Counted from the first letter of the stretch, positions 2,532 to 4,850 are shown. The stretch is DNA of 50,940 nucleotides from a bacterium (GCA_023269085.1 JAHFML010000001.1:256356-307295); one strand, 5' to 3'. Made by a program: numbers and translations. The notes: a model not told the origin generated them from the sequence alone.

Positions 2532-3521
2532 ATGTCAAGACCCCCCATTGTCGCCTCTGCCACCCCGACCCCGCCGGTCGAGGTAGACGCCGCGCTCCGC
2601 CCGAGCCATTGGGACGACTATGTCGGCCAGAAACAGATCAAAGCGAACGTGCGCATCGCTATCGACGCCGCAAAAAAGCGCGGTGGCATGCCCGAGCACA
2701 TCCTCTTCTATGGTCCGCCGGGCGTCGGGAAGACAACCCTCGCGTATCTCGTCGCCGCGACACTCGAGTCGCCCTTGAAGAGCACGTCGGGCGTCGCTAT
2801 CGAGCGCGCGGGCGACCTCGCCGCTATCCTCACCAACCTCGATCCGAACACGGTCCTCTTTATCGACGAGATCCATCGCCTCTCGCACAAGATCGAAGAG
2901 CTCCTCTACCCCGCGCTCGAGTCGGGGCATCTCGACATAATTCTCGGCAAGGGCCCCTCGGCGCGCACCGTCGAGCTCGCGCTCCCGCCCTTCACCCTCG
3001 TCGGGGCGACGACGCGCGTCTCAATGCTCTCGGGCCCCCTGCGCTCGCGCTTCGGTGGCGGGACCTTCCAGCTCGACTTCTACAGCGACGACGATCTGCG
3101 CGATATCATCAGTCGCTCGGCAGGCCTCCTCGGCCTCAACGCTCCCCGCGAGGTCATCGAGAACATCGCCGGCCGTTCACGTGCTACCCCGCGCGTTGCC
3201 AATTCCCTCTTGAAGCGCGTCCGCGACTTCTCTGAAGTGCATGAGCGCCCAATAACGCTGCCGCTCCTCGAAGAGGCCTGCCGGCTCTTCGGCATCGACG
3301 AACTCGGCCTTACCAAGGATGACAGGCGGTATCTCGAGATGCTCCGCGAGAGCTTCCACGGTGGGCCGGCGGGTGTCCGCGCGCTCGCGGCCGCGCTCCA
3401 CGAAGACCCCGACACCATCGAGAGCGTCTATGAGCCGTATCTCCTGCGCCTCGGCTTCATCGAGCGCTCCCTCCGTGGCCGCGTGCTCACCGATAAAGGG
3501 AGGGCGTACCTCGCTCGATGA
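2532..3521 (+). CDS. ruvB: Holliday junction branch-migration helicase RuvB
   Basis: LRPSHWDDYVGQKQIK.., Walker A GPPGVGKTTLA, Walker B LFIDEIHRL, sensor and winged-helix C-terminus. 329 aa. Confidence 0.95.
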   Translation: MSRPPIVASATPTPPVEVDAALRPSHWDDYVGQKQIKANVRIAIDAAKKRGGMPEHILFYGPPGVGKTTLAYLVAATLESPLKSTSGVAIERAGDLAAILTNLDPNTVLFIDEIHRLSHKIEELLYPALESGHLDIILGKGPSARTVELALPPFTLVGATTRVSMLSGPLRSRFGGGTFQLDFYSDDDLRDIISRSAGLLGLNAPREVIENIAGRSRATPRVANSLLKRVRDFSEVHERPITLPLLEEACRLFGIDELGLTKDDRRYLEMLRESFHGGPAGVRALAAALHEDPDTIESVYEPYLLRLGFIERSLRGRVLTDKGRAYLAR

Positions 3522-3574
3522 GATTGCGTCTCATGGAGAGTTTGGTATACTGAATACAATCACCACGAAAGAGA

Positions 3575-3610
3575 CCCCTGCGGAGTTCCGTCTCCACCGG
3601 GGGCTTTTTT
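3575..3610 (+). terminator. intrinsic terminator after ruvB
   Basis: Imperfect hairpin cccctgcggag / ctccaccggggg followed by cTTTTTT. Confidence 0.5.
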
Positions 3611-3878
3611 ATTTCAACTCAAGAGCATTCCGCTTATCAGCTATATACAGTATGGGCGCATCGGTTCGCTTCAACAGCAGTGAGCATTTTTCTTTTTTGC
3701 TTGGCGAAATGATCGTTTCAAATTGATTTCTGTTGTTCAGAAACTTCACAAGTTCGGCATAATCTCCGTCACTCGATACGAGAATCGCCCGCTCCATTTT
3801 CTTCTCATAAGCATCGCGCATGGCATTGTGGAGATTCGCACCATCAATATATGCGTGGTTCGTGAGCGGCTTTTGCAT
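3609..3878 (-). CDS. short NYN/LabA-like domain protein (89 aa, probably a shortened remnant)
   Basis: N-terminal AYIDGANLH and central ILVSSDGDYAELVKFL resemble the NYN motifs (xDGxN, SgDsDf). The middle of the domain appears missing. Low-GC segment. Confidence 0.45.
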   Translation of the reverse strand: MQKPLTNHAYIDGANLHNAMRDAYEKKMERAILVSSDGDYAELVKFLNNRNQFETIISPSKKEKCSLLLKRTDAPILYIADKRNALELK

Positions 3879-3884
3879 GAGCAG

Positions 3885-3893
3885 ATTTTAGCA
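3885..3893 (-). promoter_or_regulatory. TGCTAAAAT extended -10-like motif, 6 nt before ATG 3878
   Basis: Plus strand reads attttagca. Same TGCTAnnnT grammar as the core genes. Confidence 0.4.
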
Positions 3894-3907
3894 CGCTGGA
3901 AATGTCA

Positions 3908-3944
3908 CTCGGCTTCATCGAGAGTCGCGTCCTGACCGATAAAG
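3908..3944 (+). pseudogene. degenerate second copy of the ruvB 3' coding end
   Basis: ctcggcttcatcgag..cgcgtcctgaccgataaag aligns to ruvB 3449..3497 with a 12-nt in-frame deletion and 2 mismatches. Confidence 0.75.
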
Positions 3945-4015
3945 CAAATATTTGCAAAATATAGAATACACGGTATGCTCTGCGAGGATCAACCAACCCC
4001 TCCGTGGAGGAAATC

Positions 4016-4243
4016 ATGGGCTACAACGTAGTTTTCAAGAATCTCAGTGGTGTCACTACATGGACGTCGTTCGTGAGCAAAGAAAAATTCTGTGAGTGGT
4101 ACAACGACATGGCACATAACGAGCTCGCTATTGTTGCCGAAGGCGTCACTGACGATGAAGCCACTGCTTTGTGCTCTACCCTTTCGGCGCGTATGGCCGC
4201 CTTTGCTGCCGGGCTTGGGGAACTCAATGAACGCTACTCCTGA
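4016..4243 (+). CDS. hypothetical protein (75 aa)
   Basis: GGAGG sits 5 nt before ATG 4016. ORF MGYNVVFKNLSGVTTWTSF.. is followed by a terminator hairpin. No recognisable motif. Confidence 0.5.
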   Translation: MGYNVVFKNLSGVTTWTSFVSKEKFCEWYNDMAHNELAIVAEGVTDDEATALCSTLSARMAAFAAGLGELNERYS

Positions 4244-4267
4244 GCACCCGCTCCGCCGTACTCCAGC

Positions 4268-4293
4268 AAGCCCGTCCTCGCGACGGGCTTTTT
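4268..4293 (+). terminator. intrinsic terminator
   Basis: aagcccgtc ctcgc gacgggctt followed by TTTg. Confidence 0.6.
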
Positions 4294-4373
4294 GTTTGCG
4301 TGTAAAAAAGCCTGTGATATACTTTAGATATATTTGGGGCAACCCACGACCCGCGCAGGCAACTGCGCGGGGT

Positions 4374-4769
4374 CTATTTTATCTCGTGTAATTTCAAGTA
4401 TGCTTTGTTAATCTGTGTCATCTCAATTGCTCCTATTTCTCCCATCTTCTCTTTCAATCTTCGATAATCGAATGTGCGGCCTTGCGAAAGAACGATGGTC
4501 TGTTTCGTTCCTCGAAAGATAATCGGGCAATACCACGTTCCTGTTTTCTCTTTTGTTGTAAGTGGCAACCCAAGAAATGAGTACGCGTCATACTTTTTAA
4601 ATATGAAGACTGGTCGAGTGAACCGCTCGCCTTTGCCGTTCATCTCATTACCGATATTCTCTCCTGTGTGGCACCACCACAATTCGCCTTCGCGAAAGAA
4701 GGGCGGTTTGTGCTCTGCGACATGTAGACGCTCTTTTATGCCAATCCATTCGAGGAATCTTTTCAACAT
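4374..4769 (-). CDS. PemK/MazF-like toxin-fold protein (solitary)
   Basis: REGELWWCHTGENIGNEMNGKGERFTRPVFIFKKY matches the G(E/D)IWW..G.E..G.RPvlV core of PemK/MazF family proteins. 131 aa. No partner ORF upstream. Confidence 0.55.
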   Translation of the reverse strand: MLKRFLEWIGIKERLHVAEHKPPFFREGELWWCHTGENIGNEMNGKGERFTRPVFIFKKYDAYSFLGLPLTTKEKTGTWYCPIIFRGTKQTIVLSQGRTFDYRRLKEKMGEIGAIEMTQINKAYLKLHEIK

Positions 4770-4783
4770 GACGGTAGTATACC

Positions 4784-4850
4784 GCGCCTCGGCTTCATCG
4801 AACGCTCCCCCCGCGGCCGCGTGCTCACCGACAAAGGGAGGGCGTACCTC
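4784..4850 (+). pseudogene. third copy of the ruvB 3' coding end (probably the displaced native end)
   Basis: 67 nt align to 3446..3512 with 4 substitutions, 3 synonymous. In frame it reads RLGFIERSPRGRVLTDKGRAYLNA*, against ruvB RLGFIERSLRGRVLTDKGRAYLAR*. Confidence 0.85.

Follow-up and report, generated by a model that had tools for sequence, protein, structure and literature searches.

The stretch analysed here (GCA_023269085.1 JAHFML010000001.1:256356-307295; 50,940 nt, referred to below as the window) comes from an uncultured bacterium of the Candidate Phyla Radiation (CPR, or Patescibacteria). It carries the coding sequence for the RuvB C-terminus three times ahead of yebC: as the working end of ruvB (copy A), as a decayed internal remnant (copy B), and as a displaced end next to yebC (copy C), with a small foreign gene cassette in each interval. 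Comparison with related loci supports at least two successive insertions, both within the last 25 codons of ruvB; each uptake duplicated the gene end, and ruvB thereby still has its normal termination, at copy A. The same repeat-cassette-repeat layout is found at two other genes, sod and rny, making three instances in 51 kb. From this layout we infer, with about an even chance of being right, that cassettes without an integrase accrete at gene ends by insertion-duplication, and are then spread and reshaped by the homologous recombination of the host.

CPR genomes are tiny and gene-dense, few mobile elements have been recognised in them, and their gain and loss of accessory genes is poorly understood. 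A repeat-bounded layout lacking a recombinase, present at ruvB, sod, rny, pilB, and atpA and around toxin-antitoxin genes in many CPR lineages, suggests a simple route of gene flux: one that leaves essential genes and the signals of their neighbors intact, possibly with recombination as a requirement. Searches of the literature gave no account of such a layout in CPR.

Three copies of the ruvB end

Copy A (3446..3521, + strand) consists of a core at 3446-3512 and the tail GCTCGATGA (AR*), and copy C (4784..4859, + strand) of a core at 4784-4850 and the tail AACGCATAA (NA*). The two cores are identical at 63 of 67 bases (blastn E = 3.6e-22), and identity falls from 94% in the core to 3/9 in the last nine bases. 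Both frames are closed, as ..GRAYLAR* in copy A (stop at 3519-3521) and as ..GRAYLNA* in copy C (stop at 4857-4859, 20 nt before the yebC ATG at 4880). Copy B (3908..3944, + strand) matches copy A at 15/15 and 18/22 bases on the two sides of a 12-nt in-frame gap, and is cut off after ..GATAAAG. Its local alignment score of 23.75 compares with 11.5 ± 1.6 (maximum 18) for 1000 dinucleotide shuffles of the interior, none of which reached it, and with 11 for the reverse strand. The sequence-only reading of this region had described the same three copies, including the 12-nt deletion, and had named chance similarity, of the degree given by shuffled sequence, as what would undo it; the shuffles bear out the copies as described.

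The left ends of B and C fall at the same position in ruvB to within ~4 nt. Two of the differences between A and C lie in the span covered by B (GAG/GAA and GAT/GAC), and at both B has the base found in A. Copy B is the decayed copy that remains between the two cassettes. No inverted repeats were found at the cassette boundaries of the ruvB insert.

The ruvB-yebC junction in related genomes

In most of the 80 related RuvB loci compared at this junction, the gap between ruvB and yebC is tens of bases long (20-60 nt in most). The closest relative (P0123; RuvB 96% identical, same synteny through dnaA) has an empty site with a 20-nt gap; so does L173, in which the spacer TTTTTTGGTATAGTGCTCCC matches the window sequence TTTTTTGCTATAGTTCTCCT following copy C. 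As the same 20-nt arrangement is present at both empty sites, copy C with the 20-nt spacer and yebC is the ancestral junction and copy A the rebuilt end; the sequence from 3513 to 4783 is all an addition, placed upstream of where the gene first ended.

Two other relatives have part of the insert. L002 (RuvB 88% identical) has ruvB, a full-length NYN-domain gene on the minus strand, and then one displaced ruvB end; L004 (also 88%) has the same, plus an insertion sequence (IS) 200-type tnpA and a 169-aa open reading frame (ORF) before yebC. Nucleotide identity between L002 and L004 is 82.0% for ruvB, 82.4% for the NYN gene, and 79.7% for yebC; being as diverged as the genes that flank it, the NYN cassette is old and has been inherited vertically. 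The second unit of the window insert is distal to the NYN unit, and the younger insertion thus went into the displaced copy and not into the working end. Empty, NYN-only, and NYN-plus-further-gene states are all represented, which is what serial insertion predicts, and this alignment of related loci, a check that the sequence-only reading had proposed, supports its claim of at least two successive insertions at one site. The empty sites of the close relatives fit either a later gain or a precise loss through the repeats.

Displaced ends may also have been kept alike after insertion. Copies A and C of the window have the rare codons GGG AGG in common, where sampled working RuvB ends have GGY or GGA and then CGN. 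The same GGG occurs in the displaced copies of L004 (GGG AAA) and L002 (GGG CAC). These two displaced copies are 77% identical to each other, compared with only 57-62% for third codon positions in the flanking genes, and both have kept an open frame, an in-register stop, and residues that are usual in working RuvB ends. The shared rare codons, the drop in identity outside the 67-nt core, and the high identity of the L002 and L004 displaced copies suggest that A and C have probably been homogenized by gene conversion. Such conversion would account for copy B, shortened and out of register, having decayed while C did not. As to which copy is foreign, comparison of A and C with the ends of L173, L169, L002, and L004 gives a 2:2 tie at the diagnostic sites.

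Self-blastn of the ruvB-yebC inserts in L003, L023, L024, L030, L031, L034, and others revealed no ruvB-end copies, so there are many variable inserts at this junction without detectable repeats. The transposase gene of L004 (6640-7068, − strand; IS200-type Y1, 111.8 bits) has the displaced ruvB end on one side and yebC on the other, with the 169-aa ORF next to it; L030 has that ORF at the same place.

The NYN cassette

Between copies A and C (1.27 kb), GC content is 47%, compared to 60% in the flanks; the earlier estimate of ~42% was too low. The older cassette (cassette 1, 3522..3907) is a low-GC unit made up of an NYN remnant and its 3′ region, with a weakly alignable spacer; in L002 and L004, this position is taken by a full-length NYN cassette with the same orientation. 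A terminator-like hairpin (3586..3604, + strand, by hairpin search) separates the convergent ruvB and NYN genes.

The NYN-domain ORF (3609..3878, − strand) has 89 aa left after an in-frame internal deletion of ~90 aa. It matches Pfam NYN (PF01936) at 26.2 bits (cut-off 24.2; 1.3e-5), in profile positions 83-132 only, of ~145 that include the N-terminal acidic residues. Set against the 175-180-aa proteins of L002 and L004, it keeps the first 16 and last 65 residues, at 40% identity, and lacks the middle ~90; the L002 protein is complete (57.9 bits). A PADLOC scan gave only weak NYN matches. The partial domain and the deletion agree with the earlier description of a shortened NYN gene in the first unit; it is a decaying remnant and probably inactive.

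The MazF cassette and a candidate antisense RNA

The younger cassette (cassette 2, 3945..4783), a small ORF with a MazF module, is found only in this lineage, being absent from L002, L004, P0123, and L173. Its 75-aa ORF (4016..4243, + strand; 79 aa if begun from a GTG at 4004) belongs to an uncharacterized family of small proteins: an exhaustive HMMER search found 53 distant relatives at E <= 1e-3, all of them small, while a word-indexed search returned the query alone and no Pfam or PADLOC family was matched. It is followed by a terminator-like hairpin (4268..4290, + strand, from the same kind of search as above).

Convergent with the 75-aa ORF is a gene for a 131-aa toxin of the MazF/PemK family (4374..4769, − strand; PF02452 at 33.7 bits, cut-off 23.1), for which 280 homologues were collected. 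With both of its genes, the second unit is as the sequence-only reading had proposed. The family profile matches the MazF structures of S. aureus and B. subtilis (E = 1.2e-3); a PDB search with the single window sequence gave no match, and an exact-protein look-up found it not to be on record. A −10 box, TATACT (reverse complement of 4776-4781), is 6 nt before the ATG, a leaderless layout. There is no adjacent protein antitoxin: no co-directional ORF lies upstream, and copy C begins 14 nt upstream of the ATG. The homologues are likewise solitary. Viral contigs searched with the MazF protein contained no relative of it, and so give no sign of a phage carrier. The closest relatives of the window MazF are in the same neighborhood at another position, between pilB and ruvB.

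Downstream of the MazF gene and on the opposite strand, the window has a candidate cis-antisense small RNA (4315..4381, + strand): a TGn and −10 TATACT at 4315-4323, a start near 4330, hairpin a (4335-4346), hairpin b (4348-4373), and a T-run (4374-4381) that overlaps the MazF stop codon. The predicted RNA (4330-4381) would be ~52 nt long. The layout is kept at dozens of homologous loci, with a −10 box (often also a −35), a start near AUAUUUGGGG, and then, in order, a hairpin of 4-5 bp, ACGA, a GC-rich hairpin of 6-11 bp whose sequence varies, and a U-run over the toxin stop codon. Folded one by one, 21 of 21 representatives form the same two hairpins, with stem lengths varying among loci, and there are compensatory changes, both single (U-A to C-G) and of whole stems (UGGG/CCCA, CGGG/CCCG, UGGC/GCCA, CGGC/GCCG). 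The candidate has no Rfam family; an Rfam search of the insert, the window, and two loci matched tRNAs only, leaving the hairpins and the small RNA without a match. No transcript coverage of the insert was seen in the contigs of one RNA run. It is a reasonable hypothesis that this RNA serves as the antitoxin to MazF, in place of a protein. If it does, MazF with a 3′-antisense small RNA would be a new toxin-antitoxin arrangement, in a widespread MazF family apparently paired with a structured antisense RNA and not with a protein antitoxin.

Perfect DnaA boxes (TTATCCACA or its complement) were seen just past the antisense promoter in several unrelated MazF loci (L082 at 1214-1272 and 1805-1868, and downstream of MazF in L104, L106, L108, L124, and L138), more commonly than expected by chance for a 9-mer. 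A search of the window found none in the ruvB insert.

The same layout at other genes

At sod, which encodes an Fe/Mn superoxide dismutase, a repeat search found the last 54 nt of the gene twice (21313-21366 and 23668-23721, + strand; 51/54 identical). Between them lies a low-GC island of 2.3 kb, with a 252-aa ORF and a gene of the M23 peptidase/CBM96 kind. On the opposite strand, the distal copy also serves as the C-terminal coding end of a convergent ComEC gene; the ancestral ends of sod and comEC probably overlapped. The same search found the last 55 nt of rny (RNase Y; 42110-42164, + strand) repeated at ~42688-42787, on the far side of a HicB-like/HicA cassette (42176-42675). Here a 45-nt insert with a perfect 11-bp hairpin (~42727-42771) breaks up the distal copy without shifting its frame.

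Relatives provide further examples. In L086, repeats of the pilB end enclose a YafQ-RelB cassette. The pilB-ruvB spacer, of which the window has one copy, occurs there in three copies that enclose a RelB-YafQ and a MazF cassette. In L137, MazF stands between atpA and atpG, with 83 nt of the atpA end duplicated. The MazF family as a whole has 58 different contexts in 87 loci. Flanking direct repeats were found in 10 of 46 independent MazF contexts, compared with none at 231 random CPR positions and none in 44 swapped flanks. The MazF loci contain 102 direct-repeat pairs in 398 kb, and the ruvB loci 12 in 875 kb.

In relatives, the pilB-ruvB spacer is also a hotspot at which MazF and RelB-YafQ cassettes have inserted. 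In the window (2330-2500), it is predicted to form a stable structure closed by 26-nt long-range inverted repeats (−65.4 kcal/mol, z = −6.0). This element has no Rfam family, is conserved in L086 and L090, and could be a non-coding RNA or a miniature inverted-repeat transposable element.

Other repeats were noted in the MazF-bearing contigs. In L082, the last 28 nt of rplL (L7/L12; 986-1013) are repeated 143 nt downstream (1129-1156), with a 115-nt insert between, which may be the scar of a lost cassette. Four low-GC CPR contigs (L106 at 1790-4620, L149 at 4510-7540, L124 at 2590-4540, and L131) have arrays of 4-6 single-gene cassettes, with ORFs of 120-260 aa separated by 30-120-nt direct repeats; these look integron-like, with no integrase in view. 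In L111 (250-2060) and L114 (60-2070), repeats of 31-32 nt, 97-100% identical, occur at least 5 times upstream of the MazF locus, irregularly spaced at 200-1100 nt.

Comparison with known systems

The SCCmec/psiSCC islands of staphylococci (staphylococcal cassette chromosome, SCC) are cassettes stacked at the 3′ end of rlmH (orfX), with direct repeats of ~15-18 nt that include terminal coding sequence. They are many kb long and are integrated by the CcrAB or CcrC serine recombinases; some have no recombinase genes of their own. Stacking at the 3′ end of a housekeeping gene, direct repeats of the gene end, and an intact gene are all shared with the present loci, which differ in having repeats of 36-83 nt, cassettes of 0.4-2.3 kb, many different target genes, and no recombinase that was found. 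In Streptococcus thermophilus, cis-mobilizable elements (CIMEs), derived from integrative and conjugative elements (ICEs), accrete at the 3′ end of fda; they are mobilized via a site-specific integrase at a single att site. These, like islands at tRNA genes and other gene ends, resemble the ruvB insert as flanked elements without an integrase, in tandem accretion, and in the displacement of the native end to the far side, while here there is no sign of an integrase or of a parent element. Arrays of single-gene cassettes (0.4-1 kb), in which toxin-antitoxin genes abound and repeats separate the units, are also reminiscent of integrons and of clusters of attC sites lacking integron integrases (CALINs), as is a hairpin on the 3′ side of MazF. 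Integron cassettes are bounded by attC sites, imperfect palindromes with RYYYAAC and GTTRRRY cores, and depend on IntI, attI, and the promoter Pc; here, in contrast, the repeats are copies of ruvB coding sequence and the cassettes have their own promoters and mixed orientations. No IntI or attI was found beside the array, where the neighbors are pilB, ruvB, yebC, ruvC, and a penicillin-binding protein (PBP) gene. With neither attC sites nor an IntI, the array does not qualify as an integron.

As for recombination without a dedicated enzyme, insertion-duplication of the Campbell type and homology-facilitated illegitimate recombination (HFIR) in naturally transformable bacteria are known mainly as laboratory outcomes, with plasmids or one-sided anchors. 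To our knowledge, neither has been reported to build arrays of cassettes at gene ends in nature. The likeness is that a short homologous segment is doubled around the inserted DNA, and host recombination suffices. HFIR, too, has been reported from naturally transformable bacteria (PMC3240628).

The arrangement of an in-frame replacement C-terminus, an ORF, and then a remnant of the native C-terminus, as seen at ruvB, has a counterpart outside bacteria. In fungal mitochondria, mobile endonuclease ORFs have duplicated the C-terminal ends of atp6 in Allomyces and of atp6, atp9, cox2, and nad3 in Glomus; inserted and native ends differ mostly synonymously, and LAGLIDADG or GIY-YIG endonucleases drive mobility (PMC3630166). 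In the present case, the setting is a bacterial chromosome and the cargo consists of toxin-antitoxin, NYN, or peptidase genes, the only Pfam domains of the ruvB insert being NYN and PemK. In Microcystis aeruginosa, a ParE/ParD-like module downstream of MaOC1 has two identical 152-bp direct repeats and no recombinase (PMC7935541). It too is a small toxin-antitoxin module right after a stop codon, with direct repeats, while differing in being a single case whose repeats begin 14 bp past the stop and are not copies of the gene end (PMC7935541).

The ruvB insert has the direct repeats, including the 3′ end of the target gene, and the displaced native end that are expected of an integrative element. 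It lacks the terminal inverted repeats and the transposase expected of a transposon or IS, and its layout has duplications of variable length (36-83 nt). By architecture, the closest bacterial parallels would be SCCmec/psiSCC at rlmH and CIMEs at fda, and the closest overall the C-terminal duplications of fungal mitochondria.

A possible route of cassette accretion

Among the ~10 repeat-bounded intervals examined (0.4-2.3 kb), in which all ORFs were identified or scanned, none contains a gene for a recombinase or transposase, and no ORF has a tyrosine or serine recombinase domain; the ORFs are those for NYN, MazF, the 75-aa and 252-aa proteins, M23, HicA/B, and RelB-YafQ. Terminal inverted repeats are likewise absent from these intervals, and no shared target motif was evident by eye, no motif search having been run. 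Where seven coding repeats were compared, differences between copies fall at codon positions 1, 2, and 3 in the ratio 7/10/26 (binomial p = 2.4e-4 against one third), and of the codons that differ, 20 are synonymous and 12 non-synonymous. Together with the protein-like displaced copies, this third-position bias is consistent with copies that acted as coding alleles, whether they came in with the cassette or stayed similar through conversion; blind duplication of a target followed by drift fits the codon data less well.

Insertion-duplication by the host could proceed as follows, with no dedicated recombinase involved. The gene end would be doubled either by a Campbell-type single crossover with a cassette carrying a copy of that end, or by one-sided homology with an illegitimate second junction. 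Once formed, a repeat-cassette-repeat unit could be taken up as DNA by relatives and spread through their ordinary homologous recombination; the window encodes both ComEC and a type IV pilus ATPase. Where a gene end is already doubled, the left arm of an incoming unit could pair with the displaced copy, stacking cassettes in tandem, and the repeats could later undergo gene conversion, as suggested for A and C, or allow precise loss, which would give empty sites in close relatives. In compact genomes, an insertion would be viable only if it duplicates the segment shared by the gene end and the signals of its neighbor, which would bias insertions to gene ends.

Several points weigh against this proposal. 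Homologous recombination alone does not account for how a new site first comes to be duplicated. A recombinase might act in trans, the search having been complete for the repeat-bounded intervals and less than exhaustive for the rest of the 50-kb window. Copy B is more diverged from C than A is, which calls for the extra assumption of conversion between A and C. The third-position excess is modest, at 60% observed (n = 43) compared to ~44% by our own estimate for target duplication with drift. The sequencing data are assembled Logan contigs (from two DNA runs and the one RNA run), and the contigs of the two DNA runs include neither an empty-site variant nor a circular junction, and no joints at the repeats. 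Finally, some of the MazF-flanking repeats in low-GC CPR contigs (L082, L114, L124) contain an antisense promoter and a DnaA box. The notion that all MazF-flanking repeats are target duplications was dropped on this account; the repeats in these three contigs may be cassette-borne modules in tandem and not target copies.

Other explanations must be set beside insertion-duplication. The cassettes might be decayed or non-autonomous site-specific integrative elements accreted in tandem, comparable to CIMEs and psiSCC, with the repeats as attL and attR, an attP that held the ruvB end, and an integrase lost or acting in trans. Such elements are classically recognized by direct repeats of the 3′ end of a conserved gene together with a native end moved downstream; B and C start at nearly the same position of ruvB, and the copies differ as functional alleles do. 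We nevertheless think this somewhat unlikely, as no integrase is found in any of the ~10 intervals, at least six targets (ruvB, sod, rny, pilB, the pilB-ruvB spacer, and atpA) show no evident common motif by eye, one MazF module occurs in 58 contexts with its boundaries trimmed to the gene, and it has no relative on viral contigs. The closeness of the B and C left boundaries (~4 nt) speaks in turn against long target-site duplications of variable length made without homology, whether by filling of staggered nicks, by template switching of the kind seen in microhomology-mediated break-induced replication (MMBIR), or by target-primed reverse transcription of a leaderless mRNA; both copies would then derive from the recipient. 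This would suit the 23-47-nt perfect or near-perfect repeats that abut the MazF module in L098, L112, L114, and L160, left junctions at or within 2 nt of the MazF ATG in L137, L156, and L160, a repeat length ranging from 23 to 179 nt, and targets that include coding 5′ regions and intergenic DNA. It is harder to square with the third-codon-position bias and protein-like displaced copies, with cassette ends that are not fixed, and with the chance that some of those repeats are promoter modules belonging to the cassettes. Nor do the cassettes come with a reverse transcriptase or transposase, and we regard this explanation as improbable.

Selfish cassettes of the homing type, in which a nuclease cuts the naive gene end and repair copies in the cassette with a cut-resistant end, seem very improbable in spite of the nuclease-fold proteins in several cassettes (NYN, MazF, HicA, YafQ). 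These families are RNases, not DNA homing endonucleases, other cassettes of the same layout hold an M23 peptidase or small ORFs, and no LAGLIDADG, GIY-YIG, or HNH domains were found. What favors the idea is a richness in synonymous differences between copies and an architecture equal to that of the atp6, atp9, cox2, and nad3 hybrids with displaced native C-termini (PMC3630166). An assembly artefact or strain chimera has a negligible chance of being the explanation. Short-read metagenome assemblies can mis-join at repeats, and contigs of one run (X2) break near 3375-3404 and 5047-5076. The whole insert, with all three copies, is nonetheless assembled as identical sequence in contigs from two sequencing runs, at the same depth as the flanks (54 and 46), the same layout is found in independent metagenome-assembled genomes (MAGs), and the repeats (67 nt, 94% identical) are different enough to resolve. 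The ruvB-yebC insert is therefore not an assembly artefact.

Recombinase-independent cassettes might be a general route of accessory-gene flux in ultra-compact genomes. In its widest form, the proposal would be that CPR have minimal single-gene cassettes of this kind (MazF with an antisense-RNA antitoxin, NYN, HicAB, RelB-YafQ) that enter many sites, duplicate 25-180 nt of the target, and are stacked, exchanged, and precisely lost through host recombination and uptake; so broad a claim we consider doubtful and put forward only tentatively. The gene-end duplications provide concrete markers of recently acquired DNA in MAGs, and the layout yields a testable prediction for the few relatives that are naturally competent and cultivable.

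Gene neighborhood and RuvB termini

By the relatives of its RuvB, the window is assigned to Candidatus Kaiserbacteria (Paceibacterota, CPR). Its gene order is pilB-like ATPase, ruvB, yebC, ruvC, PBP1, dnaN, dnaA, and 2469-5076 is identical to a Logan contig from a groundwater metagenome. The ruvB gene (2532..3521, + strand) is complete, at 329 aa, with the Pfam domains RuvB_N, AAA_lid_4, and RuvB_C and relatives at 96-55% identity. After copy C, the 20-nt spacer, nearly identical in L173, contains TGCTATAGT (extended −10-like) and leads into yebC (4880-5434, identified by Pfam; 4860..5434 with the spacer, + strand).

Repeats of another kind surround whole core genes in two relatives: in L069, direct repeats (1865-1981 and 4344-4460) bracket ruvB and yebC, and in L065 (6618-6701 and 9361-9444) they bracket an insert and ruvC. 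At 84-117 nt and around entire genes, their layout is unlike that of the gene-end duplications.

The RuvB C-termini of the relatives P0122-P0241 fall into two classes. The longer form (~327-339 aa) usually has a G/D-E motif and a hydrophobic tail (often ..LF) after YL; in the 326-aa form, the stop comes two residues past YL, and both residues are hypervariable. Such hypervariable ends could be a trace of repeated end replacement.

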